Origin: Rickettsia sp. | GTDB lineage: Bacteria; Pseudomonadota; Alphaproteobacteria; Rickettsiales; UBA1997 | DNA length: 64,000 nt | Assembly (NCBI GenBank): GCA_038131245.1 | Contig: JAYPPA010000004.1 | Span: 14,038-78,037 of the forward strand | Direction: 5' to 3' | In this document: piece after piece, positions 1,787-28,406 of the stretch | Numbering within the stretch: the stretch's first letter is position 1 | Layout: each line of letters begins with the position of its first letter | The notes under the pieces: generated by a model | Seen by the model: only the letters and a program-made list of their open reading frames with translations | Told to the model about the DNA's origin: nothing | The model's database searches: none | Program-made: the position numbers and the translations under genes

Positions 1787-2584
1787 TTATTTGTCAAGTA
1801 TATTTGCTTTTTTAGGGAAATTGCCAGTTTTGATGTCATTTGCGAAATTCTTGGCGCAATTTGCGATATAATCAGCAGTTTTGCCATATTTTTCGACGAA
1901 TTTTGGGGTAAATTCTTGGTTTAGGCCGATCATGTCGTCGATTACTAAGATTTGACCATCACAGTTTAAAGAAGCACCAATGCCAATGGTTGGGATTGTT
2001 AATGCATTAGTAATTTGGTCGGCGAGTGAGGCTGGGGTGGCTTCGATTACTATGGCAAAAGCACCAGCATTTTGAGCATCAATTGCAATTTGCAGAATTT
2101 TTTCTGCAGAAGATTGGTCTTTGCCTTGATAAGAATAGCCGCCTAATTCGCGGACTTTTTGTGGCAAAAGTCCAACATGGGCCATGATTGGGATGTTGTT
2201 TTGGGCGATTAGTTTTATAGCGGCAATTTGGTTTTCGCCAGTTTCGATTTTAACAGCGTCACAGCCAGTTTGTTCGTAGATTTCGCGGGCGGTTTCTAGT
2301 GCTTGCTCAGGCGAGTTTTCGAAGGTGCCAGCCGGGATGTCGACAACGACGAGGCTGTGGCTACAGGCGTTAACTACTGCGCGGCCATGGTCGATCATCA
2401 TGCCAAGTGATACATCTAAAGTGTCTTTATGGCCGTAAATCGCCATGCCAAGAGAGTCTCCGACGAGAATTATGTCACAATGTTGGTCGATGGCTTTTGC
2501 GACTGGGTAAGTGTAGGCGGTGAGGCTGACGATTTTTTCTCGACCTTTTTTGCTTAAGATGTCTTTTATAGTGACTTTGCGCAT
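1787..2584 (-). CDS. panB: 3-methyl-2-oxobutanoate hydroxymethyltransferase (ketopantoate hydroxymethyltransferase)
   Basis: 265 aa. 'SLTAYTYPVAKAIDQHCDIILVGDSLGMAIYGHKDTL' and 'VKIETG' are typical PanB motifs. Confidence 0.93.
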   Translation of the reverse strand: MRKVTIKDILSKKGREKIVSLTAYTYPVAKAIDQHCDIILVGDSLGMAIYGHKDTLDVSLGMMIDHGRAVVNACSHSLVVVDIPAGTFENSPEQALETAREIYEQTGCDAVKIETGENQIAAIKLIAQNNIPIMAHVGLLPQKVRELGGYSYQGKDQSSAEKILQIAIDAQNAGAFAIVIEATPASLADQITNALTIPTIGIGASLNCDGQILVIDDMIGLNQEFTPKFVEKYGKTADYIANCAKNFANDIKTGNFPKKANILDK

Positions 2585-2586
2585 AT

Positions 2587-5500
2587 TTATTGTGTTGGAG
2601 GTTGGGCTGGGATTTGATTTGCTAAACCGCCGCTTTGCATTATTTGAATTAGTTGCTGCTGGGTCATTGCTGCTGAGTTGTTGTTTTGGTTTATTAATTG
2701 GCTTTTTTCTATCGGCTTTTCTTTTTTGTCTTGTTTTTTGACCTTCACTAGGTCTCTGTTTTTATTTTGTGGATTTGAGTAGAATTTTTTGCCTCTTTCT
2801 ATGTAGGTTTCTGCTTGAGAGAAGTTGTCGCTAAATTCGAGGTTAGCTAATTCTCCTTTGAAGTTTGAGGCGATTGTGATTGGGATTTGGCGTTTTTTGC
2901 TGCCGGTTAGGAAGATGATTTTCATTTCTCCTTGGCCAGATAAGGATTGGTTGCTAAATTTTGAGTTTATTGTGCCGTTGAAGGCAGTGCCTGAGAATTT
3001 GCCGCTTATACTGTCTTCAGTTTTTCTGTTGATGGATATTGTTCCTGAGGAGTTTTTGATTTTTGTTGTTTCTATTTTAGAGTAGAGCATGTCTTTTGGG
3101 TCGTAAATTTCATCGGCGTATTTTGCGAAATTGAAGAGTTTCCTGATCATGCTGTCAAGGCCGTAATTTTTGACGGTGATTGCTGAGGCGTTGTATTTGG
3201 CCTTTAAGCTCATGCCGGCGATGAATTCATTTTTGTTGCTGCCAAAAGAGGCGATGCTTGAGGAGATGTTGGCTGTGCCGTCGATATTTTCTATGTTGTA
3301 GAGGCTTAATATGTCTTTGATTGGGAATTTTATTAATGTTAGGTTGCCACTTAATGATTTGTCGAATTTAAGCGCTGCAGAGCCAGTAAAGTTTACTCTG
3401 CCGTCTTTGTAGCCACTTCTGAATGTTTCGAATTTTATAATGCCATCGTTCATTTTGGCGTTGATTTTGGAGTTTGACAGGTTGGTGCTGTTGATTTTGG
3501 TGTCTTTGAGGTCGATTATTATGTTGCCACTGAATCCTTCGAAGGATGGTAGAGAAAATAAAGTGTCGACAAGCGAGAAATCTTCGACTTTTTCTTCATC
3601 TTTTTTAAATTTTATGTCGTCGGTTTTTTCTTCTGGCATTATTTTTAACTTTTCTGACTTTAAAGAAAGGTTGAATTTGGAGATTGATTCTTTGATTTCA
3701 ATGGCTAGAGAGGTTGCGATGTCGGAATCTTCAGATTCTATTTTCATATTGTCAATTTCGATGTAATTTTTGCCAATTCTTGTTTTAAATTCGTTTGTGT
3801 AGTAGGTTTTGTTGTTGTAAATTAGGTTGTCGATTGAAATTTCAAGGTCATTTCTTGAATTTAAGGAATTTACCCAGAGAAGCTTTTTCAAAAGCGAGCC
3901 TGGTGACAGGTAGGTGTTTTTGGAAGATGTTTGGAAGAACCTAGAGATTTCAAGGTTGGAGATGTCTAATTTTGATACAGTGTAAGGAAAGCCCTCCTGG
4001 TGATAGATGTTTGATTCTCCTAGTATTTCGGGTCCGTCTTTAATGTTGATATATAGATTGTCGAAGTGTGTTGAGCCTGGTTTTTGAAAGACATCACTGT
4101 AGACCGCGTAGGAGCTTAGGTTTGAGTATTTTAGATTATCTAGTTTAAAGCCAAACCAGGTTAATAGCATCGATAAATTCTCGCCGGTTGCGTCGAGTTT
4201 GCCCAGGAATTTTGGAGTGTCGTTGCGGTTTTCAAAGATGCCGGTGATTCTAAACTTGCCATTACCTGGTGTTTTGAAGCTAAGTGGGAGTATTAGAACT
4301 TCACCATTTTTTGATATTGATGAATAGAGGCTAATTTCATGAATTTCTTCGAATAGATATCTGGCTTTTTCTATACTTAATTCAAGATTAAGATCTACAT
4401 CCCGAAGATCTTTAACTAATTCTTTTGCGATGTTTTTTTCATCTTTTAGGAGTTTTGGTTCTTGTTTTTTTGCTATTTTTATTGAATTTTGCGCTGTTTT
4501 TTTATCTTTTTTGATTATTCTTTGGGAGCTATCGATAAATATTTTGTCAAAGTTAACAAATCCTAGATTTAGCTCGATGTCAACAATAGGAAGTTTTTCT
4601 AGGTAGGATATGTAGATATTTGTTGCTCCGGATATGTCTTGAGATTGTATTTCACAATCTTGGACAAAGATATCTAAGCCCTCTTTTGTGATGGATGATG
4701 AGAGTTTGATCGGGTCGGAAGTCTCTTTTAATTTTTTGAATATGTAATTATTATCAGAAATAAAAGATTTATAAAATCCTTTTAGGTTAAAGATCTTTGC
4801 GGATAGATTGCCTTTAAAGTTTTCAAAAAAATCTTTAGAGTCAGTGGAAGAGAATTTTCCAGATGCGAGTAACTCCATTATTTCTGATTTTAATAGAATT
4901 GAGGAATCTTTGTTGGTTTTGGCTGAGTTGAAGTTGATTAAAAAATTGGTGAAAATACCTTTGTTGATAAAATCTCCCTTGGCAAGTAGTGAGTCTTGCT
5001 TGAAATTGGTTGTCATATTGACTTTGTCGATCTGTTTTTTATTGCCTAGTTTGGAGTAGTAAATTAAATTAAAGTCTTTTAAACTGAAATTAATTTTTTT
5101 TAAGAAATGGCTATTATTTAAGTTCAATTCGTCGACTGGAAATAAATTTCCACCAATTCCTCCTTGGCGAATAGTTTTTAGTTGAGATTCAGATATTAAT
5201 TTTATTAATTCTTTTGATTTTGTCTTTTCGGCATTATCAGAAGATGCCACTTCCATGGTTGCATTATTTATGGATATTGAGGTGATGTCGAATTTTGATA
5301 GAAATGCTGATAAAATTGAGAGTTTTATGGTTATTTTTTCTGAATGTAGGTGGATGGTTTTTGAGCCGGTGAATAAATTTCTAAGGTAAACTTCGTTGAA
5401 GGTGATATTTGGTACTGGGAAGAGCGAGGTTTTTATCTCGCCGTTAATTTTTAATTCTGCTTTTAATTGATTAGAAAATTTACTTTCCAGGTCTTCTCGT

Positions 5501-5649
5501 AGAGTTTGGTTATTTAGTATTAGCGGCGCTGAGAATAATATTAGGATAAGAATTAGTATTACAGGAAGTATCATTATGAGTATTTTAGACTCTATGAACT
5601 TCTCCTCGGCACCTTTAATCTTGCTGGAAATGGACTTAAAAAATTGCAT
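2587..5649 (-). CDS. AsmA-family large membrane-anchored protein
   Basis: 1020 aa with an N-terminal TM helix (ILIMILPVILILILILFSAPLIL). The long Asn/Ser/Lys-rich beta-type body matches AsmA/DUF3971-like architecture, and the tail is Gln/Pro-rich. The stop lies 2 nt before the panB start. Family call is from architecture only. Confidence 0.5.
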   Translation of the reverse strand: MQFFKSISSKIKGAEEKFIESKILIMILPVILILILILFSAPLILNNQTLREDLESKFSNQLKAELKINGEIKTSLFPVPNITFNEVYLRNLFTGSKTIHLHSEKITIKLSILSAFLSKFDITSISINNATMEVASSDNAEKTKSKELIKLISESQLKTIRQGGIGGNLFPVDELNLNNSHFLKKINFSLKDFNLIYYSKLGNKKQIDKVNMTTNFKQDSLLAKGDFINKGIFTNFLINFNSAKTNKDSSILLKSEIMELLASGKFSSTDSKDFFENFKGNLSAKIFNLKGFYKSFISDNNYIFKKLKETSDPIKLSSSITKEGLDIFVQDCEIQSQDISGATNIYISYLEKLPIVDIELNLGFVNFDKIFIDSSQRIIKKDKKTAQNSIKIAKKQEPKLLKDEKNIAKELVKDLRDVDLNLELSIEKARYLFEEIHEISLYSSISKNGEVLILPLSFKTPGNGKFRITGIFENRNDTPKFLGKLDATGENLSMLLTWFGFKLDNLKYSNLSSYAVYSDVFQKPGSTHFDNLYINIKDGPEILGESNIYHQEGFPYTVSKLDISNLEISRFFQTSSKNTYLSPGSLLKKLLWVNSLNSRNDLEISIDNLIYNNKTYYTNEFKTRIGKNYIEIDNMKIESEDSDIATSLAIEIKESISKFNLSLKSEKLKIMPEEKTDDIKFKKDEEKVEDFSLVDTLFSLPSFEGFSGNIIIDLKDTKINSTNLSNSKINAKMNDGIIKFETFRSGYKDGRVNFTGSAALKFDKSLSGNLTLIKFPIKDILSLYNIENIDGTANISSSIASFGSNKNEFIAGMSLKAKYNASAITVKNYGLDSMIRKLFNFAKYADEIYDPKDMLYSKIETTKIKNSSGTISINRKTEDSISGKFSGTAFNGTINSKFSNQSLSGQGEMKIIFLTGSKKRQIPITIASNFKGELANLEFSDNFSQAETYIERGKKFYSNPQNKNRDLVKVKKQDKKEKPIEKSQLINQNNNSAAMTQQQLIQIMQSGGLANQIPAQPPTQ

Positions 5650-5793
5650 TTATTTATTTAATAGCTAAAAATTTAGTCAGAACTATCCTTGCTTTAAATA
5701 TTAGCTTAAGTTATATTTAAAGTCAAAGGGGGATTGATTTTTTTTTAAAGTGTTGCCTTTAATATTAAGTAACCACTAAAGTGATAATAATAG

Positions 5794-5823
5794 TTGACAA
5801 TTCTTGCTTTTTGTTTTTATTAT
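5794..5823 (+). promoter_or_regulatory. sigma70-type promoter candidate for the kinase/EPS operon
   Basis: TTGACA at 5794-5799, 18-nt spacer, TATTAT at 5818-5823, about 30 nt upstream of the ATG at 5855. Confidence 0.45.
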
Positions 5824-5854
5824 TATATATATGAATTGCATATAATTATTACAA

Positions 5855-8086
5855 ATGAAAAAAGAGATTTTTAAAAAATATTTTAATTTTTCTGTTCGAT
5901 CGCTTAGTGCGAAGATTGTTTTTCTTGCCTGTGTAGCTGTGTTCCTTGGGACTTTTATTGTGGGGATGGTAAACTACTATCGTACTGTGGAAATCGCCTC
6001 TGATGCTGCAATTGAAGGGTTAGCTGGCGAGACTCGTTTAGCATCATTAAGGTTTAAAGGTGGCTATAATGAGATGAAAAATGACGCTTTTATCATTTCT
6101 AGGATGCCTTCGATTGAAGGGGTTATCCAAAGTATTGCTGGTAATTCTTCTGTAGGTATATGGAGAGATAGGCTTGCTATTGTTTTTTCCTCTATAATAA
6201 AGGATCGGGATCATTATAAGCAAATAAGGCTTATTGGGGTTGCTGATGGAGGGAAGGAGATTGTTCGAGTAAGACGTTTAGGTGGTAACATTGAGGTGTT
6301 TTCTAAGGGGCATTTAAAGCGTAGAAATGATGACCCTTATTTTAAGGAGGTGATTAATGGCAGAAAAGGAGTTTATTTTTCTAGAGCGCTTCGTGACAAG
6401 GAACTTGTAGGTTCTGATGAGAAGGATGTTTTGATTATTCGCGCTTTTCTGCCAATATTTCATAAAGATGAGCTGTTTGGGGTAATTGTTATTGATGTTG
6501 ATTATGACAAGTTTTTTGTTAATATATTTAAAGAGATTAAATTAAATAAAAATGCTTTTGTTTTAAATGACGAAGGTAATCATATGGAGTATTATAAAGA
6601 CAGAGAATCTTCTGATGCTAAGTTTCATGATAACGATCATTATCCTGATTTTTTGCGTGATTTTTTTGCGTCTAACAATCAAGAGGATAGTGCAGTTGAG
6701 GGGGGTGATATTTTTTACGGAGTTAAGGTTGGTATTGATGAAAGTGACCCTAAAAGGTTTTTTGGAGTGGTTTTAAAAATTCCTTACGATGATGTAATGG
6801 AAGAGGTTCATAAGATTCGTTATAAAAATGCTATATTAGGTATATTGATTATTTTTATCTCTTTGCTTTTAACTGCTTTATTTGCGATAGCATTGACTAA
6901 TCCACTTAGAAAAATGACTAGAGAAATATTGTTGTCGAAAAATCACAAGATCAAGAATCTTGATTTACCCTTGGGCTTGCAGGATGAGACGGGGGATTTA
7001 GCAAGAGCTTTTAAAAATAAGGCAGAGGAGCTGGCTTTGAGCGAAGAAAAGCTTCAGGCTGTTATAGATAATATCGTCGATGGCATTATCACAGTTGATA
7101 AAAATGGTAAAATAGATAGCTATAGTCAGGCTTGTAATAATATTTTTGGATATCAAGAGGTTGATGCTTTAGGTAAAAGTTTTGGGTTTTTACTAAAAGA
7201 TCCTGATTGCTTTAATGACGAACTTGATGGCTTAATTAACAAAAGGTTGGAATTTGTTGCTATTAGTCAAGATGGTCGCGAATTCCCTTTGGAAGTTTCT
7301 ATAAGTAGAATAACTTTAAACAGTAGGGATTTGTATTGCCTTGTTGTTCGTGATATTACAGAAATTAAACAAGTTGAGGATATGAAAAACGAATTTATTT
7401 CAACTATAAATCATGAAATTCGCACTCCTCTTACCTCCATACAAGGGTCCTTGATTTTACTGCAGGATAAGATGAAGTCTTTGAAGGATAGAAAAATTAA
7501 AAGTTTGATTGATATTTCTCGTAGTAACAGTGATAGGTTGTTACTTTTGGTGAATGATATTTTAGATATAGAAAAAATGGCAGCCGGGCGCATGAATTAT
7601 GATATTCAAAGGTATGATATTTATGAATTAGTCAAGATTGCTGTTGAAAAAAGTCAGGGATACGCCCAGAAATACAATATACAACTAAAACTTAATAGAA
7701 AGATGGGTGAGGTATATTGTCGAGTTGATGCAGATCGTTTTGAACAGGCAATTAATAATTTACTTTCAAATGCTGTGAAGTATTCTCCTAGAGGTGGAAA
7801 AGTTACGATCAAAGTTGAGGATTATGGAAAGACTCGAGTTAAAGTTTCAGTTTGCGATAAGGGCTCGGGTATTCCTAAAAAATTTTACGATAAGATTTTT
7901 CATAGATTTTCTCAATCTGATGATCATACGACTCGAAAGAAGGGCGGGACTGGGCTTGGCTTAAGTATTGTAAAATCAATAGTTAAGGCTTTTAAAGGTA
8001 AAGTTGACTTTGAGAGTGAAGAAGGAAAGGGCTCAACTTTTTATATAATATTACCAAAAACAAGAAAAAGAAATGTTAAAAAATAA
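5855..8086 (+). CDS. sensor histidine kinase (2 TM, large periplasmic domain, HAMP, PAS, HisKA, HATPase_c)
   Basis: 743 aa. TM1 is IVFLACVAVFLGTFIVGMV, followed by a ~290-aa extracytoplasmic segment and TM2 AILGILIIFISLLLTALFAIALT. PAS 'LQAVIDNIVDGIITVDKNGKI', H-box 'FISTINHEIRTPLTSI', G-boxes 'DKGSGIP' and 'GGTGLGLSIVKSIV'. No receiver domain. Confidence 0.9.
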   Translation: MKKEIFKKYFNFSVRSLSAKIVFLACVAVFLGTFIVGMVNYYRTVEIASDAAIEGLAGETRLASLRFKGGYNEMKNDAFIISRMPSIEGVIQSIAGNSSVGIWRDRLAIVFSSIIKDRDHYKQIRLIGVADGGKEIVRVRRLGGNIEVFSKGHLKRRNDDPYFKEVINGRKGVYFSRALRDKELVGSDEKDVLIIRAFLPIFHKDELFGVIVIDVDYDKFFVNIFKEIKLNKNAFVLNDEGNHMEYYKDRESSDAKFHDNDHYPDFLRDFFASNNQEDSAVEGGDIFYGVKVGIDESDPKRFFGVVLKIPYDDVMEEVHKIRYKNAILGILIIFISLLLTALFAIALTNPLRKMTREILLSKNHKIKNLDLPLGLQDETGDLARAFKNKAEELALSEEKLQAVIDNIVDGIITVDKNGKIDSYSQACNNIFGYQEVDALGKSFGFLLKDPDCFNDELDGLINKRLEFVAISQDGREFPLEVSISRITLNSRDLYCLVVRDITEIKQVEDMKNEFISTINHEIRTPLTSIQGSLILLQDKMKSLKDRKIKSLIDISRSNSDRLLLLVNDILDIEKMAAGRMNYDIQRYDIYELVKIAVEKSQGYAQKYNIQLKLNRKMGEVYCRVDADRFEQAINNLLSNAVKYSPRGGKVTIKVEDYGKTRVKVSVCDKGSGIPKKFYDKIFHRFSQSDDHTTRKKGGTGLGLSIVKSIVKAFKGKVDFESEEGKGSTFYIILPKTRKRNVKK

Positions 8087-8468
8087 ATTAAAGAAAGTTT
8101 TATATATTGAAGATGACGAGGATATTGCACAAATAGCGATGATGACCTTTGAGGATCTGTGTGGTTTTGATGCAAAGCATTGTATTTGTGGCGCTGATGG
8201 CTTGAAAATGTTGCCGAAGTTAAAGCCTGATTTGATAATACTTGATATGATGATGCCTGACATGAATGGCCTTGAAACTTTGAAAAATATCAGAAAAATC
8301 AAAGAATTTAAAGATATTCCAGTAATATTTATGACAGCAAAGATGCAAAGTCATGAGCAAAAATCTTATTTGGATGCAGGAGCTGTTGGCGTTATAACCA
8401 AACCATTTGATCCGATGAGCTTGTGCGAAAATATTAATAAAATATGGAAAGAAGTAAATGCCAAGTAA
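8073..8468 (+). CDS. single-domain (CheY-like) response regulator
   Basis: 131 aa. 'VLYIEDDEDI', 'LIILDMMMPDMNGLE' and 'PVIFMTAK' give the receiver D-D-D-T/K pattern. No output domain. Overlaps the kinase stop by 14 nt. Confidence 0.9.
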   Translation: MLKNKLKKVLYIEDDEDIAQIAMMTFEDLCGFDAKHCICGADGLKMLPKLKPDLIILDMMMPDMNGLETLKNIRKIKEFKDIPVIFMTAKMQSHEQKSYLDAGAVGVITKPFDPMSLCENINKIWKEVNAK

Positions 8469-9585
8469 GAAAGAGTTTCAGGAAAATCTGAATAAAATTG
8501 CTCAGAATTTTCTAGTTAAATTGAAAGGGTCTATAGTTGATTTTGAAAAATGTTTAAAATCGATTGAGAAAGAAGATTTACCAAAAAAAATGCAAGATGA
8601 TGTTCTTGTGATTTTTCACAAAATAGCTGGCTTAGCAAAAATAGTTGGCTTCGAAGATCTTGGAAAAAAAGCAGCGCAGATCGAAGAAATTCTCAAGACA
8701 AAAGTATCTAAATCAAAGCTTGATGATTTGAAAAAGCTTTTAGATTCTTTTATAAAAGATTCTCACAAACTTATTTCTGCAAATTTAAAGTCGGAATCTA
8801 AACAGACCCTAAAGCACAAAGATAAGTGCAATTATAAATATAAGATTTTGATTGCTGAGGACAATGAGTTAATGCGAGATCTATTAAGGGAGGCTTTGCT
8901 TGATATAAAATGTGAGTTGATAGAGGCTGAAGATGGGGCGAGGGCCATAAAAATGGCGAAATCGGAAAGTAAGAATCTGAATCTGGTTATTTTGGATGTA
9001 AATATGCCCAAGAAGAATGGGTTTGAGGTACTAAAGGCTTTAAAAGGTGCAGGGCCTACCAAGGACATCCCGGCGATAATGCTGACAAGAAAAGCCGAGG
9101 ACGAAAATGTGATAAAAGGAATATCGGGTGGCGCGATAGACTATATCACTAAACCTTTCGAAGTTCAAGATCTAGTTAACATTATATCAGATATTTTAAA
9201 GAATGTCAAGAAGAAAATCTTGATTGCTGATGATGATGAATTAATTCATGATTTATTAACTGGACATTTCCATCATTTGGGTTATGATGTAGTTAATGCT
9301 AAAGATGGTAAAGAGGCTGTAAAAATGATAAAAAAAGAAAAGCCAGATATTGCTATTATTGATTATATGATGCCGGCTTTAGATGGAATTTCAGTGATAA
9401 GAAAGGTTAGAGAGGATAGTGAGTTAAAAAATATTCCAATGATATTGTTAACTGCAAAATCTCAGCAGGAAAATGTTTTATTGGGACTTAAGAGTGGCGC
9501 AAGGGATTATATTACAAAACCGTTTGATGTTGATGAGTTATCGCAAAGGATAGCGGGTATTTTACAAAGGAGCGAAGATGACTAA
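8458..9585 (+). CDS. Hpt-REC-REC phosphorelay protein
   Basis: 375 aa. The N-terminal four-helix region carries the Hpt motif 'FHKIAGLAKIVGFEDLGKKAAQIEEIL'. Two receiver domains follow ('ILIAEDNEL..VILDVNMPKKNGFE..MLTRK' and 'ILIADDDEL..AIIDYMMPALDGIS..LLTAK'). No DNA-binding or enzymatic output domain. Confidence 0.8.
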   Translation: MPSKKEFQENLNKIAQNFLVKLKGSIVDFEKCLKSIEKEDLPKKMQDDVLVIFHKIAGLAKIVGFEDLGKKAAQIEEILKTKVSKSKLDDLKKLLDSFIKDSHKLISANLKSESKQTLKHKDKCNYKYKILIAEDNELMRDLLREALLDIKCELIEAEDGARAIKMAKSESKNLNLVILDVNMPKKNGFEVLKALKGAGPTKDIPAIMLTRKAEDENVIKGISGGAIDYITKPFEVQDLVNIISDILKNVKKKILIADDDELIHDLLTGHFHHLGYDVVNAKDGKEAVKMIKKEKPDIAIIDYMMPALDGISVIRKVREDSELKNIPMILLTAKSQQENVLLGLKSGARDYITKPFDVDELSQRIAGILQRSEDD

Positions 9586-10747
9586 AGTAGTTTTAGTAAT
9601 AATGTTGCTGTTTTTTTCACAAAGCGCCCTTGCTTATAATTATGATGATGCTTTGAGGTTTAGGAAGGAGGGTGATAATGCGAAATCTTTGCAGATTTTC
9701 AAGTCTTTAGTTAAGGATGACCCTCAAAATTCAGAATTATGGTTTTATGTTGGGCTGCTTCAGAGGATTCAAGGTGATTTTGATGAGGCGATGAAGTCTC
9801 AGCAAAAGGCGCTGAAGATTTCTCCTGAGAATAATGATGTGAAGCTTGAAATTGCTAGAATTCATGTTGTGAATGGGGATTTTGATAAGGCGGAGCTGTT
9901 GATTGATCAGATATTAAGCAGTAATTCGACTTACAAGGAGGCGGAAAAGCTTTTAGTTAGAATTGAAAAGATCAAGTTTGATTTTGAAGAGGGAAGGGTT
10001 GTTTTAAAGAGGCATCCTTATAGTTGGTATGTTGATACTGGCTATGAAAGGAGCAGGTTTTCTAGAGAGGTTAATCAACGAAAAGAGTGGCGCAATAGTT
10101 TTTTGCAAGTTGGACATCGCGTGACGGATAAAACTTTGGTTCATGCTAAGATTCACGGCTATAAAAGGGCTGATAAGCATGAAGAAAATTACGAGGTGGG
10201 GGCTGATCATGTATTTAACAAGAATTATAATGCTGGTTTGGATGTTGCTTATACTCAAAAATCAGAGTTTTTGGCAAAGTGGAAGGTTAAGGCTAGGGGT
10301 GAGGCTAGGGTGGTTCGAGATCATAAATATATTGGTGATACTTGGCTTGTTGGTGATGTGCAAAGTGATCGCTATCAGAATTTTGATATTTATGTGATGA
10401 AATATGGCGCAAGGTACCATATTACGGATAATTTGGATGTTACAGGGGTGTTTATTGATGTTGTGGATCAAAATGATGATGTGATTAGGGGGCGTATGGG
10501 AAGGGTTAATTACCAGACTCCTTGGCGTAAGTTAAGGGTTTTTGGTGGTTATGCCTCTGCTCCTGAGACTCAGAATTCGTCGGTTTCAAATGGCCAAGGT
10601 TTTGTTGTGCAAACCAGAACGGTGTTTTATGGTGGGTCTTATAAAGTTAGCGACAACATCACTCTTCACTTAGCGTATACAAGGGATGATCGCGAGAATT
10701 CTTTTATTAGAAAGGTTGTGTCTTCGACAATTTCTTTGAAATTTTAA
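9578..10747 (+). CDS. outer-membrane protein: signal peptide + TPR repeats + C-terminal beta-barrel (YaiO/PgaA-porin-like)
   Basis: 389 aa. Signal peptide is MTKVVLVIMLLFFSQSALA|YN. About 3 TPR units span residues 20-130. The C-terminal half has alternating beta-strand character and ends in '...STISLKF' (terminal Phe, an OMP signature). Overlaps the upstream gene by 8 nt. Confidence 0.6.
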   Translation: MTKVVLVIMLLFFSQSALAYNYDDALRFRKEGDNAKSLQIFKSLVKDDPQNSELWFYVGLLQRIQGDFDEAMKSQQKALKISPENNDVKLEIARIHVVNGDFDKAELLIDQILSSNSTYKEAEKLLVRIEKIKFDFEEGRVVLKRHPYSWYVDTGYERSRFSREVNQRKEWRNSFLQVGHRVTDKTLVHAKIHGYKRADKHEENYEVGADHVFNKNYNAGLDVAYTQKSEFLAKWKVKARGEARVVRDHKYIGDTWLVGDVQSDRYQNFDIYVMKYGARYHITDNLDVTGVFIDVVDQNDDVIRGRMGRVNYQTPWRKLRVFGGYASAPETQNSSVSNGQGFVVQTRTVFYGGSYKVSDNITLHLAYTRDDRENSFIRKVVSSTISLKF

Positions 10748-11800
10748 ATGTTTATAAGTCAAAAAGATGCATTATTAATGTGGGATTTGATCCTGGTGAT
10801 GGTCGTGGTTTCTGTTGTGATTTTTTCTACTTTAATAGTTATTCGTTTTTTTACTGATCGAAAAAAGAGGCTGAAGAAGATTCGCAAAGATTGGATGAGG
10901 CGCAAAATATTATTTCATTTAGAAAATCCGCTGAAGGATATTGAAAAAGAGATTTTGCAAAAAAAAGGTGATGTTAGGCTTTTACTGGAGGTTGCTTATG
11001 ATTTATTGAGGAACTTGAAAGGGGCTTCTCATAAAAAGATTTTAGACTTATTGGCTCAGGCTGGATTGCAAAATCATGTTTTAGATAAACTTGTTGGCAG
11101 TAATAATAAGGCTTTGTTGTCGTCGATTTCTTTGTGTCATTACTGGCCAAGTAAGGATGTAAAAAATAGATTGGTTGAGTTGTTGGATCATAAAAATATA
11201 GCTATAAAATATGCTGCTGGTGAGGTTATTTCTAATATGAAAGATTTAAAATTATTTCCTATATTGGTAAAAAAAGTTGAGGAGGAGAAGAGGTTTTCGC
11301 CGCTAATGATTTGCATATTGTTTCAAAATTTTGGCGTGGAGGCTGAGCAGAAGATGATTGCAGCATTAAAGAAAAGTAAGTCAATCAGGATGAGAAAGGC
11401 AATATTGATGGTTATGGCTAAGTTTCGTAGTAGGAAATATGTAAGTGTGATTTCTAAATTTTGTAAACATAAAGATCCAGAAATTCGAGTTTTGGCTTTT
11501 CTGGCGCTTGCCTCTATAAAAGATCCGGTGCCTTTGGAGGTTTTGGAGTATGGCGCAAAGGATTCGAACTTGCGAGTTAGGAAATATGTTGCAAGATGTA
11601 CAAAATACTCTTTTCCTGATTCTGGAAGGGTTTTGTCTAAGCTTTTGGGTGATGATAATTGGCTTGTTGGTTTGGAGGCGGCAAAATCTTTGATTGGCTC
11701 TGGGTTTTCAGGGAAGCAACTCTTGGAGGTTCTGGCTAAAAGTAAGAGTGTTGCTGGTCAGAGGGCAAAAATGATGTTGTTGGAAGGGGGTTCGAGATGA
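10748..11800 (+). CDS. membrane-anchored HEAT/armadillo-like repeat protein
   Basis: 350 aa with an N-terminal TM (LILVMVVVSVVIFSTLIVIRFF). Repeated helical units such as 'DPEIRVLAFLALASIKDP', 'DSNLRVRKYVARCTKY' and 'DDNWLVGLEAAKSLIG' resemble PBS-lyase HEAT repeats. The start abuts the upstream stop (taaATG). Confidence 0.5.
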   Translation: MFISQKDALLMWDLILVMVVVSVVIFSTLIVIRFFTDRKKRLKKIRKDWMRRKILFHLENPLKDIEKEILQKKGDVRLLLEVAYDLLRNLKGASHKKILDLLAQAGLQNHVLDKLVGSNNKALLSSISLCHYWPSKDVKNRLVELLDHKNIAIKYAAGEVISNMKDLKLFPILVKKVEEEKRFSPLMICILFQNFGVEAEQKMIAALKKSKSIRMRKAILMVMAKFRSRKYVSVISKFCKHKDPEIRVLAFLALASIKDPVPLEVLEYGAKDSNLRVRKYVARCTKYSFPDSGRVLSKLLGDDNWLVGLEAAKSLIGSGFSGKQLLEVLAKSKSVAGQRAKMMLLEGGSR

Positions 11801-13227
11801 ATTTTATCGATAGCTTTGTTCAGTTTATATTGCCATATAGCAAAGAAATAACGGCATTTTCTTATGTTGTTTTGGGTTTTGGGGTTTTTCAAAACATTAT
11901 ATATTTACTGCAGATTCCACTTGCTTTTCGAGAGCTTATTCGCTTAAGAAGGAGGGAGCACGAGAATTGGCGCTTGATGAAGTCTGATATTTCCTTGCCA
12001 ATATCAATTATTATTCCGGCTTATAATGAGGAAGTGACAATTTGCGAGACGGTTTTGGCTGCTCAAAATATGCAATATCCTAAATTTGAAGTGATTGTTG
12101 TTAATGATGGATCTAAGGATAAAACAGCGAAAGTTCTGATAAAAGAATTTAATTTGAAGAAAGTTGATCGTTTTTACGGCGAAGAGCTTGAGCATGCAAA
12201 GATCATTGGTGTGTATGCTTCTGAGATGTATCCGAATCTGATTTTTGTTGATAAGGAAAATGGTGGCAGGTCGGATGCGATAAATACTGGGATAGTAATT
12301 TCGCGCAATCCTCTTTTTTGCACTTTGGATGCCGATTCTTTGCTTGATCCAGAGGCTTTGTTGTCAAGCGTTAGACCTTTTATAGAAGACCCTGAGAGAA
12401 TTGTTGCAACTGGTGGTACGGTTCGAATAATTAATGGCTCAATAGTTGAGGATGGTTCCATTAAGGATACAAAACTCTCCAGGAAGGTTTTGCCATTAAT
12501 GCAAGTTATGGAATATATTCGCGCTTTTTTGATGGGTAGGCTTTCGTGGAGTAGTCTTGGGATGGTGATGATAATTTCTGGGGCTTTTGCGGTTTTTAGA
12601 AGGGATATGGCTATTGCTGTTGGTGGTTTTAATACAAAAACAATCGGTGAAGATTTTGATTTGGTGGTAAAAATGCATCGATATTGCCGCGAGCAAAAAA
12701 TGGATTACAAAATGCGTTTTGTGCCAGATCCAGTGTGTTGGACAGAGGCTCCAGAAACTTTAAAGGTTCTGGCAAATCAAAGAATTCGTTGGCAGCAAGG
12801 TGGTTTGGAGGTGATTTTTCGCAACATAAAGATGCTTTTTAATCCAAAATATGGCAGAATTGGTATGGTGGCTTTTCCATTGATGTTTATTATTGATGTT
12901 TTAGGTCCAGTGGTGGAGCTTGCTAGTTATATTTTGGTGCCAATATTTTATTTCACAGGAATGTTGAATACTGAGTTTATGTTGTTATTTCTTGGGCTAT
13001 TTTTTGTACTTGGAATTTTTATTAGCATGATGTCTTTGGTTATGGAGGAAATTTCTCTGCAGAGATTTAAAAGTGCCAAAAGCCTTGTTATTATGGCTTT
13101 GATGGCGATTATAGAGAATTTTGGCTACCGTCAACTAAACAGCATCTGGAGAATAAAAGGTTGGTGGAGATTTTTGCGCAAAAAGCAAGTTTGGGGCGAA
13201 ATGACCAGGGTCAAAAGAGAGAAATAG
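11797..13227 (+). CDS. processive family-2 glycosyltransferase (PgaC/IcaA/YaiP-like polysaccharide synthase)
   Basis: 476 aa with N- and C-terminal TM helices around a GT-A domain. Motifs: 'ISIIIPAYNEE', 'VVNDGSKD', 'LDADS', 'GEDFDL' and the processive-synthase motif 'QRIRWQQGG'. 4-nt overlap (ATGA) with the upstream gene. Confidence 0.8.
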   Translation: MNFIDSFVQFILPYSKEITAFSYVVLGFGVFQNIIYLLQIPLAFRELIRLRRREHENWRLMKSDISLPISIIIPAYNEEVTICETVLAAQNMQYPKFEVIVVNDGSKDKTAKVLIKEFNLKKVDRFYGEELEHAKIIGVYASEMYPNLIFVDKENGGRSDAINTGIVISRNPLFCTLDADSLLDPEALLSSVRPFIEDPERIVATGGTVRIINGSIVEDGSIKDTKLSRKVLPLMQVMEYIRAFLMGRLSWSSLGMVMIISGAFAVFRRDMAIAVGGFNTKTIGEDFDLVVKMHRYCREQKMDYKMRFVPDPVCWTEAPETLKVLANQRIRWQQGGLEVIFRNIKMLFNPKYGRIGMVAFPLMFIIDVLGPVVELASYILVPIFYFTGMLNTEFMLLFLGLFFVLGIFISMMSLVMEEISLQRFKSAKSLVIMALMAIIENFGYRQLNSIWRIKGWWRFLRKKQVWGEMTRVKREK

Positions 13228-14381: not shown

Positions 14382-17339
14382 TTATTGTCTTGTTTGTTTG
14401 TGTTTTGGTGGGGCTGCGGCTGATGCGGCGGCTGATGCGAGGGCTGTGCCTGGGGTTCTTTCTTCATAGGTTATTGTTGGTGGCTTTAGGCTGTCTTTGG
14501 CGTTGTTATATTGAGTGTTGGTTCTTCCTGAGGAGTCTTTGGTGGTTGATAAATATTTTGAAAAATGTATCAGTCTGACTGTGTTGCCGCTTGGGTCTTT
14601 AAATTCGGTGAGTATTCCAAGGATTCTTGCTTCTGAACCTTTAATTTTTAGTTCATATACGGTTCCATTTTTGTTTTGGCATATAAACTTTGTTCCATCA
14701 TCCCCTTTTGCTTTGGCAAATTCAGTTTTTGCAAGTGCTGCTTTGAATTTTTCTTCATTATTGCTGGTTTTGTTCAAGAGTTCATCTGGGCAATGGATTT
14801 TATACTGTGTGCCTGCGTCGTTGGTTACTGTTGGAAGTGAGTTTAAATCCACTTCGCTGCCATCTATTTTTAAAACATATTCTTTTTCTGGTTTTTTTGG
14901 TCTTGCTGGTGCGGCTTGGCTTTTGAATTCTTGGCATGCTTTGAGATATTGCTGCATCATCAACTCGTTTTCTCTTTGAATCATCAGATCATGTTCGACA
15001 TCCATGATTAGAAATTCATCTATGTCTTTGATTAGATCCACCCTTTGTTCGGTGGTTAATTCTTGGTCGCTTTGCGTGGCGTTTAAGTATTTTCTATAAG
15101 CATTGATGTTTATTTTTTTATCTAAGCGCTGGTATTGATCATTTAGAGCTATTATTCTTTGAATGGTGGCTTCTGATTGTTCGTGATTTAAGGATAAAAT
15201 ATGTAACTTAAATAGTGAGTTTAGTAGGCTGAGCTTAAATTCAGGGGTTTGGGTTTTTTTGATGGCTTTTTCGTGGATTTCTATGGCTGCTGTGAAGGCT
15301 TGATTTACTTGGTCTGCTTGGGCCTCTGGGTTGGCAAAGTTGTATTGTGGGCAGGCTTCGTTATAAACAAAGTAGTCGCGAAAACTGAATGCGGCTTGTA
15401 GGTTGTAGAAATCCAGAGCTTCTTGAGTGGGGCAGTGCGGCGCGGACTCTCTGTCGAGATGAGCTAGAATTACTTCTCTTGCTTTTTCAAGGTTTTGAGT
15501 TAGGGATATTGAGGTTAGATATAGTTCAGAGTAAAAACCTGAGAGTTGAGATGGATCTGTTGCGAGGACTTCTTCTTCAGGGACGGCCTTGTATTTATGT
15601 TTTTGACCTTCTTCGTTGGTTGCATACAGGCTTTGCTTTATTAGGGTTAATGCGAATTTGAGTTCAGGATCCTGGTCGGTAAAGTGAGTAAGTCCTTCGC
15701 CCGTTAGAAGATAGTGAATTTTTTCAAATCTTTCTATGGCTTCTTCTTTGAAGTTTTTTACTCTTTTTGAAGCTTCGCCAATTAGGGTTTGTGTGGCCAT
15801 TTGTAGATATTGAAGTTTTTTGGCGTCATCCTGGATAGCAACTAGTGTGGATCTAAATTTCATGAAAGATTCCCTGGTGCCATTCATTGCGTAATCCATT
15901 AAGAGGCCCATAATGTTGTGGTCATTTCTTTCAGCCTCTTGAACATTGGCGGCATACTTAGCGAAGGCTCGCGCCATTTTTTCTTCGTCGATTATTGCTG
16001 TAGGGCCACTTCCTATGGTGGATCTACTTAAGTTATAGCGCAAGAGTTGGTTATTTAGGTGTGGTATCATCAGTCTTATTTCTTCGCGGTCGCTTTGTAG
16101 GTAAGCTTCTTCATTTTCTTTTGCGAGTTTTAGGGCTAGGGCGATGGCCTGATCAAAGTCTTTGAGGATTTTGATATCGATGCGATCTCCTACTGCTATG
16201 ACTTCTGCTAAGTAGACATCTCTTACTAGTTGAGATATCCATATTATTGGATCGTAGACTCCCATGATCTCAAATAGATCTTCATGGTTCTCAAAGAGGT
16301 CGCGGGAGAGTCTTTTTTTCAGTTCGTGGAAGAAATAAAATGTGTTAATTAGACTATCGGAGAGTTCAATTTCTTTACTTAGCTCCGCTCTGCCATCCAA
16401 GGGGCCGGAAGATGTAGTGAGGGCGTCCGACACTACTCTTGAAAAGAGATCGTTAAGTCTTGCGAGGAATGATTCTCGATGTTTTGCAAACATTTCGATA
16501 GTCATTTTGTAGAACTCTACTATAAGGTTTAGACTATCTTTGTCGACTTGATCTTTGTTGCCAAGGGTTTTTTTTAGGAGATTTGCTATTTTTGGAGTTA
16601 GTATGTAAAGGAGTTCAGTTTCTTGTTCATCGGGGTAGCTTTTGCCTATTGCCGCGATATTTTCAATTTCTTGCAATATGTCAAAGGGCTCTTCTGGCTC
16701 TTGATATTGAAAATTTTCTGGGTTTTCAGCGATTTCTAGTGCAAGAAAGGTTAATTCTTGCATGACTGTATCAAAATCAATGATTTGTCTTCCACGCATA
16801 TTTTGAGCAATGGCGTTGAGGCGTGTATATAAAGCTGGGTCGTTAATGAATGCATAAATTGGGAAGTCTTCGAATTGATCGAAAATAAATTGAGCGAAAA
16901 TGGCGGTTAAGCCACAGTTGCTTGCGTCAAATGTGTGAAATGGGTCTTCACCTTGCCTGACTCGGATATATTTATTGGGATTATGGGTTATTACTGCGTT
17001 AAAAAAGGTGTTTCTTAATATTTCTTCGATGGCTTCTCTTCTGGCTGGGCCGCTGGGGTTGTGTAATAATGAGTCATATATTGAATATTCAACGCCGGTT
17101 GGGGTTTGTTGTAGGTTGAGCAAAATAAAGTGGCCATGGTGCTCAACTATATAGAGCCCATATTCTTCGTCATTTTCTTGAGCTTGATGAATAACATTTT
17201 GCAAATGCTCTTCAGGGATTAGGTCGGTTGTGATTGTGGCTTGATGGACATTGTGTCCAAGACCTCCTTTTATCATTTCTATTATTGGGTCTATTCCAAC
17301 TGTGCCTTCGAGTGGTATTTTTTCTGATAAATATAGCAT
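14382..17339 (-). CDS. large (985 aa) hypothetical protein; N-terminal Ulp1/CE-clan-like cysteine-protease pattern; candidate host-targeted effector
   Basis: No signal peptide or TM. Residues ~60-150 read 'HHGHFILLNL..(19 aa)..YDSLL..RQGEDPFHTFDASNCGLTAIF', i.e. His70/Asp89/Gln129/Cys142 in the order and spacing of the Ulp1/SENP/XopD/ChlaDUB (clan CE) catalytic core. The rest is mostly helical. The C-terminal ~60 aa show a RelE/Gp49-like motif. Confidence 0.45.
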   Translation of the reverse strand: MLYLSEKIPLEGTVGIDPIIEMIKGGLGHNVHQATITTDLIPEEHLQNVIHQAQENDEEYGLYIVEHHGHFILLNLQQTPTGVEYSIYDSLLHNPSGPARREAIEEILRNTFFNAVITHNPNKYIRVRQGEDPFHTFDASNCGLTAIFAQFIFDQFEDFPIYAFINDPALYTRLNAIAQNMRGRQIIDFDTVMQELTFLALEIAENPENFQYQEPEEPFDILQEIENIAAIGKSYPDEQETELLYILTPKIANLLKKTLGNKDQVDKDSLNLIVEFYKMTIEMFAKHRESFLARLNDLFSRVVSDALTTSSGPLDGRAELSKEIELSDSLINTFYFFHELKKRLSRDLFENHEDLFEIMGVYDPIIWISQLVRDVYLAEVIAVGDRIDIKILKDFDQAIALALKLAKENEEAYLQSDREEIRLMIPHLNNQLLRYNLSRSTIGSGPTAIIDEEKMARAFAKYAANVQEAERNDHNIMGLLMDYAMNGTRESFMKFRSTLVAIQDDAKKLQYLQMATQTLIGEASKRVKNFKEEAIERFEKIHYLLTGEGLTHFTDQDPELKFALTLIKQSLYATNEEGQKHKYKAVPEEEVLATDPSQLSGFYSELYLTSISLTQNLEKAREVILAHLDRESAPHCPTQEALDFYNLQAAFSFRDYFVYNEACPQYNFANPEAQADQVNQAFTAAIEIHEKAIKKTQTPEFKLSLLNSLFKLHILSLNHEQSEATIQRIIALNDQYQRLDKKININAYRKYLNATQSDQELTTEQRVDLIKDIDEFLIMDVEHDLMIQRENELMMQQYLKACQEFKSQAAPARPKKPEKEYVLKIDGSEVDLNSLPTVTNDAGTQYKIHCPDELLNKTSNNEEKFKAALAKTEFAKAKGDDGTKFICQNKNGTVYELKIKGSEARILGILTEFKDPSGNTVRLIHFSKYLSTTKDSSGRTNTQYNNAKDSLKPPTITYEERTPGTALASAAASAAAPPKHKQTRQ

Positions 17340-17953: not shown

Positions 17954-18985
17954 ATGAGACCATCAATGTGGAAAGGTTTGGCAGGGGCGGCTGTGGGTTA
18001 TGGCGCCACCAGAAGAGAGCAGATGCAAGATTCTTTTGGTCGCGTGGCAAAAAGGTTTCCTCGTCGTGCTCATAGTGAATCTGGTTTAGGAAAATTTCCG
18101 TTGATGTTTATATTGGAGTCCCATGATTATTCTGTTGGATCTTTGATTGCTGGTGCTTTGCCGTATTTTCGTTATATGGGGGCGGGACATGTTTTTTTTG
18201 AATATAGTAGTGCACAAACCCCTTTCGAGAAGTTACATGGATATGTAGATGAGATGGATGATAATTTTAGAAAAATGAAAGAGTTATTTCCAGAGGCTTT
18301 TTACGCTATACAGGCTAGGGCTAATATTAAAAATCCGGGATCATGTTCTTTTACTCAAGAGGGTTTTTTGAAGGCTATTAAAGCTATTGGGCCAGAAGGG
18401 ATTAAAGATGTATTTCATACATTACATAAAAATGAATTTAATGAGGAACCTGAAGAGGTTGCAATTAATAATCTCACCTCTATAACATATGCTTTGTCTA
18501 ATACATCTCAATGTGAATTATTGAGTAAATCCTTAAGTCTTTTTGGTGAGAGAGGTGTACATAATGTTGATATAGAAGATCTCAAGATTAGTGCTGATAG
18601 TTCTAGGGATCCCGAGGCGGCATTAAAAAGAAATTCAGTAATTTTAGGTAATATTTTATCCATAGCGGATGGCGGAATTTATTATGGAGGGGTGGCTCAT
18701 CATGGTTGGGCTCAGGTTGGTATTGCAAATATACTTGATGCCAATTATGGAAAAGTTCAGGGCGTTCCAGATCCTAAAGATGTAGTATTTATTTACGCTA
18801 AGAATTTGCCCGATCATTTAGATGGGCCAGATTTTCGAAGAGGAGGGCCAGAGCGATATCCTCTTTATGTTATTGATGTTAAGGGCATGAGTCCTAAAGA
18901 ATTTGCACTAAAATGCCAAGAGGCGATTTTTGAGAATAGAAAACATATAAAAGAGCTGGAAAAGGGAAGGGGCGGTGGTCGTTGA
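17954..18985 (+). CDS. hypothetical protein (343 aa), no recognisable domain
   Basis: Long ORF with coding-like composition, no signal peptide or TM, Gly/Arg-rich ends. Confidence 0.45.
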   Translation: MRPSMWKGLAGAAVGYGATRREQMQDSFGRVAKRFPRRAHSESGLGKFPLMFILESHDYSVGSLIAGALPYFRYMGAGHVFFEYSSAQTPFEKLHGYVDEMDDNFRKMKELFPEAFYAIQARANIKNPGSCSFTQEGFLKAIKAIGPEGIKDVFHTLHKNEFNEEPEEVAINNLTSITYALSNTSQCELLSKSLSLFGERGVHNVDIEDLKISADSSRDPEAALKRNSVILGNILSIADGGIYYGGVAHHGWAQVGIANILDANYGKVQGVPDPKDVVFIYAKNLPDHLDGPDFRRGGPERYPLYVIDVKGMSPKEFALKCQEAIFENRKHIKELEKGRGGGR

Positions 18986-25685: not shown

Positions 25686-26689
25686 TTTAACTGATCTTTT
25701 GTTTGCATTTCGTCAAATTCTGGAGGAAAATTATTAATTTGGCGCCATAATTCATATCCCAGGCTGACTTCGTTTAGCAAGACCCAGCCATATGCTTTTG
25801 CCATGTGTCTCAAGAATTTTTTGTTGGGCCATTCTTCATCTGGTGCTTTTGAAACTATGACACGGAACTTGCCATTTTGAGATGCTGCTGAGTCTATTGC
25901 TGTGACTACTCCGCCAAAAGTGCCGATTGCGACTTCGGGCCAGCCACTAAATTGGACTGCGGGCCATCCTTCGAATTGTAGCCTTACTTTACGACCTTTG
26001 TAAATTAATGGAATATCGTTGCCACTTATGTAAAGTTCTACCGCGGGTTCGTTAAGATCTGGGGCAAATGTTGCTATTTGATCTCCTTCTTTGACGATTG
26101 TGGAGTTATTTCCAGCCAATAATTTTAATATTGTGCCATCTTTTGGAGCGTAGATTGTCTGGCTTTTTTGACGAGAAAGCTTTATTTGTGCTTCTGTGGC
26201 TTCGGCATTTGCTGTTTCTAGGGCGCTGAGAAGTTTTTTATATTCTATCTTAGCTTTTTCAAACTCTTTTCGAGAAGATATGCCTTGTGAAAATAGATCT
26301 TTTTGGCGCTCGTAATTAATCTTAGCAGTATTGGCAGCAATTTGTGCGACTTCACTTTTGCGTTTTTTAGCGTCTAGTTGATCTTGAATTCTTTGAAGTA
26401 TTTGAGGGTCATTATCAACGATCTCGACTATTTTTTCTCCTTTTTTAATATGATTTCCGTCACGCACATACCACCTATCTATACGCCCCGAAACAGTAGC
26501 ATTGATTGATTGAGTTCTGTCATTTGGGTCGATTGCAATAATGTAACCAACTCCTTTGGAAGTTTGTTGCCAAGGGGTAATTATTAATATCGCTATGGTT
26601 GCAACCAGTATTGTTAATATTATTTTTGGTAATATTTTTACTGGATTTGGAACTTTAATACTGTTGAGTGTCTTAAATTCTTTTTCCAT
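25682..26689 (-). CDS. HlyD-family periplasmic adaptor (membrane fusion protein)
   Basis: 335 aa. N-terminal TM, lipoyl-like 'VSGRIDRWYVRDGNHIKKGEKIVEI', a coiled-coil hairpin, and beta-barrel 'IYAPKDGTILKL'. Confidence 0.8.
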   Translation of the reverse strand: MEKEFKTLNSIKVPNPVKILPKIILTILVATIAILIITPWQQTSKGVGYIIAIDPNDRTQSINATVSGRIDRWYVRDGNHIKKGEKIVEIVDNDPQILQRIQDQLDAKKRKSEVAQIAANTAKINYERQKDLFSQGISSRKEFEKAKIEYKKLLSALETANAEATEAQIKLSRQKSQTIYAPKDGTILKLLAGNNSTIVKEGDQIATFAPDLNEPAVELYISGNDIPLIYKGRKVRLQFEGWPAVQFSGWPEVAIGTFGGVVTAIDSAASQNGKFRVIVSKAPDEEWPNKKFLRHMAKAYGWVLLNEVSLGYELWRQINNFPPEFDEMQTKDQLK

Positions 26690-26691
26690 GG

Positions 26692-28365: not shown

Positions 28366-28406
28366 ATCATTAATAAAATTTAATGTTTTTGCTGTGATAT
28401 TATAAT

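Follow-up and report, generated by a model that had tools for sequence, protein, structure and literature searches.

A putative synthase-dependent polysaccharide export operon with a HEAT-repeat partner and its own phosphorelay, member of a widespread and uncharacterised family

In this work, we analyse a six-gene operon found at positions 5855-13227 of a stretch of 64,000 nucleotides, here called the window, which was taken from a Rickettsia sp. assembly (GenBank GCA_038131245.1, contig JAYPPA010000004.1, positions 14,038 to 78,037 of the forward strand). The operon probably encodes a complete synthase-dependent system for the synthesis and export of a polysaccharide, belonging to a distinct, widespread and uncharacterised family and equipped with its own His-Asp phosphorelay, for which we propose a post-translational gating role; we assign to this reading a probability of about 0.6. 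It is no oddity of a single genome, being an ordinary member of a large family: close relatives of its glycosyltransferase are present in at least 598 species-representative genomes. The operon is made up as follows.

5794..5823, plus strand: sigma-70-like promoter candidate (TTGACA-18-TATTAT), 32 nt 5' of the kinase start codon
5855..8086, plus strand: sensor histidine kinase, non-hybrid, 743 amino acids (aa), with a first transmembrane (TM) helix, periplasmic sensor, second TM helix, HAMP-like linker, PAS, HisKA and HATPase_c
8073..8468, plus strand: stand-alone receiver, 131 aa (Response_reg, 90.7 bits)
8458..9585, plus strand: histidine phosphotransfer (Hpt) protein of the type Hpt-REC-REC, 375 aa, with two Response_reg receiver domains (R1 and R2) and no output domain
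9578..10747, plus strand: TPR plus YaiO beta-barrel outer-membrane protein, 389 aa, putative export pore (Pfam and NCBIfam matches, signal peptide)
10748..11800, plus strand: inner-membrane-anchored HEAT-repeat protein, 350 aa (HEAT_2, 67.8 bits)
11797..13227, plus strand: membrane-integrated family-2 glycosyltransferase (GT2), 476 aa (motifs, AF2 model, Foldseek)

Open reading frame (ORF) calling and translation yield six consecutive plus-strand genes, and the overlaps of 14, 11, 8, 0 and 4 nt between adjacent ORFs, already listed in a preliminary description made from the sequence alone, were reproduced at exactly the same coordinates. At the 0-nt junction between the barrel and HEAT genes, a TAA stop is immediately followed by the ATG (TAAATG). 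Independent gene calling on a Logan contig encoding the same proteins gave identical boundaries for the last four genes. The promoter candidate agrees with the consensus at 11 of 12 positions and is the best on the plus strand and second-best overall in the scanned region, as a consensus match only; no convincing internal terminator was found within the operon. Purine runs resembling Shine-Dalgarno sites are located ahead of the barrel gene (AGGAG) and of the GT2 gene (GGAAGGGGG). The domain assignments of the preliminary description were likewise recovered for the single-domain receiver, for the Hpt-REC-REC protein, for the outer-membrane protein with its signal peptide, TPR and barrel, for the TM-anchored HEAT protein and for the multi-TM GT2 with its QxxRW motif. 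As to the kinase, described there as a periplasm-sensing HAMP-PAS protein, the TM helices, periplasmic domain, PAS, HisKA and HATPase_c stand, while the HAMP domain scores only 17.2 bits against a cutoff of 25 and is recognised at motif level only.

The extent of the family was established by scanning one genome per species for relatives of the GT2; the best 80 loci, together with loci collected earlier and the window (84 loci), were then analysed, assigning their genes with hidden Markov models (HMMs) built iteratively from the window proteins. At all 78 loci with room for it, a HEAT gene lies directly before the GT2 gene; a TPR-YaiO barrel gene directly precedes HEAT at 68 of 74 loci, and a receiver-only gene directly precedes the barrel in 65 cases out of 68 (51 single receivers and 14 Hpt-REC-REC proteins). 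The trio of GT2, HEAT and TPR-barrel genes is thus syntenic in dozens of other genomes from several phyla, a point on which the preliminary description had let its proposal depend. HEAT-GT2 pairs with no detectable YaiO barrel are found at L073, L083, L086, L055, L042 and L013 (Gemmatimonadota, Acidobacteriota, Verrucomicrobiota and Maritalea), and at the first three of these a receiver gene lies directly before the pair. At L086, large TPR proteins are encoded upstream, in the place of the barrel. Kinase and Hpt genes usually lie near the module, either upstream or downstream as a convergent set of Hpt, REC and HK-REC (histidine kinase-receiver) genes. Gene calls around three distant homologues illustrate the arrangement.

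Hyphomicrobiales metagenome-assembled genome (MAG): TPR/YaiO, HEAT and GT2, in this order
Asticcacaulis biprosthecium C19: a 391-aa receiver protein, then the trio
Aquabacterium: REC, Hpt-REC(-REC), the trio, a 638-aa unknown protein, REC

Among the alphaproteobacterial carriers are members of Caulobacterales, Sphingomonadales, Hyphomicrobiales (Mesorhizobium), Rhodospirillales and Hyphomonadaceae, and Rickettsiales-type MAGs, and among the others members of Pseudohongiellaceae, Bdellovibrionales (Bdellovibrionota), Verrucomicrobiota, Gemmatimonadota and Acidobacteriota; the best relatives are Alphaproteobacteria/Rickettsiales-type MAGs. Clustering of all neighbouring ORFs of the 84 loci revealed no other conserved accessory gene, and in this set the module has no conserved neighbour that is a diguanylate cyclase, an output-domain regulator, a deacetylase or a hydrolase. 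A protein of about 640 aa, with a sub-threshold match to Polysacc_deac_1, recurs at 8 of the 84 loci, in unrelated lineages, beside or near the trio (for instance L005:11443-13362, L064:11386-13248 and L023:11441-13372). It has no relative in the PDB and no homologue in the window; it could be an optional modification enzyme, and would then hint at a polymer containing N-acetylhexosamine (HexNAc). Long "GT2" ORFs at high-GC loci were considered as possible fusions and rejected as start-codon artefacts. A description of a REC/YaiO/HEAT/GT2 module was not found in the literature, where coverage of subscription journals was slight, so that a prior description is possible; papers dealing with YaiO are almost wholly concerned with E. 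coli PCR markers.

Motifs and predicted fold support the assignment of the GT2 to the processive-type, membrane-integrated synthases. The protein consists of an N-terminal helix, a GT-A domain and C-terminal TM and interface helices. All expected catalytic motifs are present, namely D104, D178-A-D180, G284-E285-D286 and Q328-R-I-R-W332 (within QRIRWQQGG), and they are invariant or nearly so in 29 homologues. The C-terminal sequence W466-G467-x-M-T-R471, in which W466-G467...R471 are invariant in the family, resembles the WGTR gating-loop motif of hyaluronan synthases, a likeness to be used as a lead only. In the AF2 model, built on the 29 homologues (pLDDT 87.2, pTM 0.87), the GT-A domain packs on a bundle of TM and interface helices, in the fold of the solved synthases. 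The best PDB matches returned by Foldseek are the Chlorella-virus and Xenopus hyaluronan synthases (E 6e-16, TM-score 0.6-0.68), fungal and oomycete chitin synthases, BcsA and plant CesA, all of which are processive and form a channel: the GT2 does not, then, group with non-processive enzymes, an outcome which the preliminary description had named as contrary to its proposal. Ranks 15 and 20 of the top 40 matches are taken by PcManGT, a mannosyltransferase that does not polymerise.

Relatives of the GT2 number in the thousands, those at 44-69% identity bearing generic names only. Similarity to E. coli PgaC amounts to 30% identity over 323 aa (E 4e-38), and the best NCBIfam match is TIGR03937, the PgaC/IcaA equivalog, at 160.1 bits with a cutoff of 422.3; the NodC model TIGR04242 gives 46 bits and the CelA model TIGR03030 72.7 bits against a cutoff of 699.1. 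A HexNAc-containing polymer would be a reasonable guess at best, made because PgaC, the hyaluronan and chitin synthases and NodC use UDP-N-acetylglucosamine and because a deacetylase-like gene is present at a minority of loci.

The HEAT protein appears to be the obligate partner of the GT2. It is anchored by a single TM helix at its N-terminus, which is followed by a basic stretch next to the membrane (RKKRLKKIRK) and by about nine helix pairs, and from the positive-inside rule the solenoid is predicted to face the cytoplasm. In P0204, a HEAT-family member from the representative library, an SH3_3 domain lies N-terminal to the TM helix, which implies that the N-terminus lies in the periplasm and the HEAT repeats in the cytoplasm. 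Foldseek matches of the AF2 model (pLDDT 91.9) are confined to alpha-solenoids of a generic or designed kind, among them alphaRep and PP2A PR65. The protein evolves fast, homologues being 14-31% identical to the window protein in the profile alignment. Word seeding with this protein alone retrieved just one homologue; a profile made from sequences of the loci, followed by a full HMMER scan, was needed to recover the family, which comprises about 1,250 clusters at 50% identity (E<=1e-30). Nearly all top matches are 340-365 aa long and align end-to-end. The family is well defined: its members have about 350 aa, with a TM helix, a basic stretch and about nine helix pairs, and are further marked by a conserved RG motif and by AG..A...L.E.G at the C-terminus. 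Database names of these relatives are only "HEAT repeat protein" or "hypothetical".

The outer-membrane protein starts with a Sec signal peptide (MTKVVLVIMLLFFSQSALA, with the predicted cleavage site ...SQSALA/YN), continues with a periplasmic TPR region (residues about 20-140; TPR_19, 50.3 bits) and ends with a YaiO barrel (about 150-389), whose C-terminus, ...SLKF, has Phe as its last residue. Both YaiO models score above their curated cutoffs (TIGR04390, 69.1 against 32 bits; PF19413, 26.9 against 23.9).

The His-Asp relay encoded by the first three genes is genetically dedicated and has no output domain. In the kinase, TM helices 21-39 and 327-345 enclose a periplasmic domain of about 285 aa, near-threshold for HK_sensor_dom_bact (26.5 against 27 bits), and the H-box of HisKA reads NHEIRTPL. 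An HMM of this sensor domain matched no kinase in 86 related loci, so that the input module is lineage-specific, with sensor domains varying between loci and a constant output module. The 131-aa receiver has E-D, D, T and K at the equivalents of CheY D12/D13/D57/T87/K109, and is a probable relay intermediate of the Spo0F type. The Hpt domain falls slightly below the Pfam cutoff (22.5 against 24.6 bits), but its His lies within the motif FHKIAG, and our own Hpt HMM recovers the domain in 54 ORFs of related loci. All three receivers of the operon retain the pattern (E/D)D...D...T...K, that is, the acidic pocket, phospho-Asp, Thr and Lys. The residues of a multi-step phosphorelay are therefore complete, from the H-box His of the kinase through D/D/T/K of the receivers to the His of Hpt.

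All-against-all comparison of the receivers sets apart those lying next to the barrel gene. These form one orthologous family, within which every top-5 match falls. The nearest relatives of the window R2 are barrel-adjacent single receivers (43-47% identity), whereas the best matches of the 131-aa receiver are relay receivers located beside kinase or Hpt genes elsewhere, not the barrel-adjacent ones. Conservation was counted over 64 sequences, namely the 51 adjacent single receivers and 13 R2 domains, the Hpt-REC-REC homologues coming from L003, L007-L012, L023, L024, L032, L049, L051 and L064. The phospho-Asp is kept in 51 of 51 adjacent receivers and in 13 of 13 R2 domains, and all 64 also have the equivalents of D13 and K109, T or S at position 87 and an aromatic residue at position 106. 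Positions specific to this family (L331, L344, D350, Y351, E360 and R364) cluster on the alpha4-beta5-alpha5 face and are rare in relay receivers. In about 4 of 14 homologues of the Hpt-REC-REC protein, R1 no longer has its phospho-Asp or lacks other residues of the pocket, which is never the case for R2. Read from the sequences, R2 and the adjacent receivers show the pattern to be expected if a CheY-like protein acts on one fixed protein partner.

On comparative-genomic grounds, the relay probably acts post-translationally on the HEAT-synthase complex. In the mechanism we propose, the GT2 would polymerise sugar from a nucleotide-sugar donor, probably UDP-HexNAc or UDP-hexose to judge from its nearest relatives, and would thread the chain over the inner membrane via its own TM channel; the chain would then pass the periplasm along the TPR domain and exit by the YaiO-type barrel. 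The HEAT alpha-solenoid would sit on the cytoplasmic face, beside the GT domain, as obligate adaptor of the synthase. A periplasmic stimulus would send phosphate from the kinase His to the 131-aa receiver, from there to the Hpt His and finally to R2, the terminal receiver. Because the relay proteins have no output domain, phosphorylated R2 (R2~P) is proposed to bind the HEAT solenoid and/or the GT domain, through its alpha4-beta5-alpha5 face, turning polymerisation on or off. R2~P would thereby do what in the Bcs, Pga, Alg, Pel and Nfr systems is done by c-di-GMP receptors. The specific form of this proposal, in which a phosphorylated CheY-like receiver docks on an obligate HEAT adaptor anchored in the membrane and so, in the place of c-di-GMP, gates a processive synthase directly, in a new and widespread family, is put forward tentatively, at somewhat less than even odds.

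Several points weigh against the proposed mechanism. The last acceptor of a multi-step relay is often a transcription factor whose gene lies elsewhere, and receiver-only proteins can be phosphate sinks. At three loci (L001, L075 and L077) the trio lacks an adjacent receiver gene. A scan of seven longer proteins from the 150 best HEAT-family matches revealed no fusion of the REC-HEAT or HEAT-GT2 type: these proteins contain just HEAT repeats and, in one case, also SH3_3. With about 240 residues and, by our own crude count, roughly 12-14 strands, the barrel is small for a polymer pore. An explanation which we regard as unlikely, though it deserves attention, keeps the same secretion machine and makes the relay transcriptional or otherwise indirect, with the receivers acting as intermediates or sinks and the true output being a DNA-binding or GGDEF regulator elsewhere. 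Relays containing Hpt commonly feed distal regulators, extra receivers and kinases lie near several of the related loci, and a degenerate R1, as seen in a fraction of the Hpt-REC-REC homologues, is frequent in modulators and sinks. A distal output fits less well, however, with the lack of any conserved output-domain regulator in the neighbourhood of the 84 loci, and with a receiver remaining beside HEAT-GT2 where the barrel gene has been lost; moreover, that the adjacent receivers constitute one orthologous family, with full switch residues and a specific alpha4-beta5-alpha5 face, points to a fixed partner.

Control by cyclic di-GMP (c-di-GMP) has also to be weighed: this or another nucleotide might gate the synthase at an unrecognised GT2-HEAT site, the HEAT protein being a PgaD-like co-subunit and the relay a second layer of control. 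PgaC, the closest characterised relative of the GT2, binds c-di-GMP at the PgaC-PgaD interface with neither PilZ nor any other recognisable domain, so that missing PilZ and GGDEF domains leave room for such control here too, a further point to the disadvantage of gating by R2~P. In synthase-dependent pathways, post-translational control does frequently involve c-di-GMP (PMC12802240). Against this explanation stands only the absence of known domains, PilZ, GGDEF, EAL, MshEN and GIL-type domains occurring in none of the six products and no diguanylate cyclase being conserved near the module; as to the co-subunit, the HEAT protein is a 350-aa solenoid with no similarity to PgaD, which has about 137 aa and two TM helices. 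On balance we find it improbable. Slightly less probable still is that the GT2 makes a glycolipid, a short NodC-like oligosaccharide or a periplasmic glycan, while the barrel and HEAT proteins serve some other envelope function. GT2s of similar topology do include NodC, whose model scores as given above, and glycolipid synthases, and the deacetylase, hydrolase or lyase usual in Pga, Bcs, Alg and Pel is missing here. Polymer synthesis is nevertheless favoured by full-length structural matches to channel-forming polymer synthases, by conservation of QxxRW, of the C-terminal TM bundle and of the invariant WG..R tail, and by the co-location of a dedicated TPR-barrel gene at 68 of 74 loci.

Comparison with known systems leads back to the favoured reading of a synthase-dependent system with unusual partners. 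An inner-membrane synthase, a periplasmic TPR region and an outer-membrane barrel are encoded together, in the order maintained across the family, in keeping with the synthase-dependent logic put forward in the preliminary description. The latter had also claimed that deacetylase or hydrolase, PgaD and PilZ/GGDEF/EAL components are lacking, and this was confirmed: Pfam and NCBIfam scans of the six products and of the genes on either side gave no PilZ, GGDEF, EAL or MshEN domain and none of a deacetylase or hydrolase, and no helix-turn-helix or other DNA-binding domain and no glycoside hydrolase domain was seen in the six products or their immediate neighbours. The GT2 stop codon is separated by 4 nt from a convergent gene, which leaves no space for a PgaD gene. 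Nor was any c-di-GMP receptor module of the types found in this class (PilZ, PelD-type, PgaD interface, MshEN) recognisable as a domain. In its working the system resembles Pga, Bcs, Alg, Pel and Nfr, yet when tested against each of them it belongs to none.

Resemblance is closest to Pga/Ica, in that PgaC is the nearest characterised GT2, of the same size class and with the same layout of TM helices, GT-A domain and TM helices, and that PgaA likewise joins TPR and beta-barrel. However, the window GT2 stays well below the cutoff of the PgaC/IcaA model, the operon has neither PgaD nor the deacetylase/hydrolase PgaB, and its barrel protein is of YaiO type, with 389 aa in total against 807 for PgaA (TIGR03939, 26.3 against 366.65 bits); a HEAT partner and a phosphorelay are found instead of PgaD and c-di-GMP. 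Class I hyaluronan synthases, chitin synthases and BcsA give the best structural matches and share the D, DxD, xED and QxxRW motifs, but identity to the window GT2 is only 13-18%, and the latter has neither a PilZ domain nor a BcsB partner: no PilZ match and no BcsB-like ORF were found when cellulose synthase was considered. The NfrB-NfrA-YbcH cluster (the N4 glycan receptor system of E. coli) and the xagABCD and sfz clusters similarly combine, in a small operon, a GT2 synthase with a TPR outer-membrane protein. NfrB and XagB/Sfz2 carry the c-di-GMP-binding MshEN (T2SSE_N) domain, and the xag and sfz clusters include a BcsB-like partner (PMC8250860, PMC4643136). None of these clusters has a HEAT protein or receivers, the window GT2 has no MshEN domain, and its BLASTP match to E. 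coli NfrB covers 84 aa at E 2e-4. Xanthomonas xagABCD and Zetaproteobacteria sfz were accordingly rejected as counterparts, being NfrB-like, with a T2SSE_N/MshEN-GT2 and a BcsB-like partner.

Two further systems offer partial parallels for a helical-repeat partner and for a receiver acting on an enzyme. PelE is a membrane-anchored helical-repeat "protein interaction module" of the PelDEFG complex, together with a cytoplasmic regulator and a glycosyltransferase (PMC12345266). In Pel, however, PelF is a soluble GT4, PelG a translocase and PelD the c-di-GMP-binding component, and PelE is unrelated in sequence to the HEAT protein. In Myxococcus xanthus, the phosphorylated single-domain receiver EpsW~P directly activates the polysaccharide enzyme EpsZ (PMC12802240). 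That case differs in belonging to a Wzx/Wzy pathway, in having a phosphoglycosyl transferase, not a processive synthase, as target, and in its CheA-like kinase. The E. coli yaiO-yaiX-yaiP-yaiS locus also combines a YaiO-family barrel with a GT2, and the resemblance to yaiO/yaiP noted in the preliminary description holds at the level of domain families; it does not extend to orthology. YaiP aligns with the window GT2 over the N-terminal GT-A half only (29% over 224 aa, E 5e-11), leaving the QxxRW region unaligned, and E. coli YaiO has no TPR and no BLAST similarity to the window barrel protein, so that both were rejected as orthologues. The yai locus, besides, contains an acyltransferase and a deacetylase, and has no HEAT protein or receivers.

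To our knowledge, every well-studied Gram-negative synthase-dependent system (cellulose, poly-N-acetylglucosamine, alginate, Pel, Nfr) is switched post-translationally by c-di-GMP. If the proposed gating is correct, the family described here, spread over at least 598 species, would represent a second regulatory logic for synthase-dependent secretion, in which a receiver-only protein and a HEAT adaptor stand where the c-di-GMP receptor would be. It would also provide a new type of accessory subunit, a minimal type of pore (TPR-YaiO) and a first function for YaiO-family barrels. The synthase-dependent logic is known; a distinct family whose adaptor is new, and whose regulatory input probably is so too, is what is added here. 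In bacteria of soil, of the sea and of plants, the polymer could be of importance for adhesion and biofilms, and cultivable carriers exist, among them Asticcacaulis biprosthecium C19, Brevundimonas, Mesorhizobium, Hellea balneolensis and Erythrobacter/Aurantiacibacter.

As to the genomic surroundings, GC and GC3 of the operon are in line with those of the neighbouring genes, and give no sign of recent acquisition. According to the domain scans, the operon is bordered upstream by an AsmA-family gene and downstream by genes for an FAD monooxygenase and for an unknown protein of 985 aa. The AsmA-family gene (2587-5649, minus strand, 1020 aa) is divergent from the promoter region of the operon; it is absent beside the trio in other loci, and its placement is probably coincidental. 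The 985-aa ORF (14382-17339, minus strand) and a 343-aa ORF (17954-18985, plus strand), both just downstream of the operon, have zero Pfam matches. A minus-strand unit of three genes (24276-28452) encodes an ABC exporter of the type I secretion/MsbA-like kind, all of whose family scores are far under the cutoffs, together with a HlyD/RND-type adaptor and a third product, of 468 aa, that matches no family. An assimilatory sulfate reduction operon (30594-36723, plus strand; cysG, cysH, cysJ, cysI and cysD) speaks for a host that lives freely, even though Rickettsiales-type MAGs are the best relatives. Finally, GC skew is strongly positive (0.2-0.38) over positions 2000-13000 irrespective of gene strand, which suggests a pronounced replication-strand bias in this genome.

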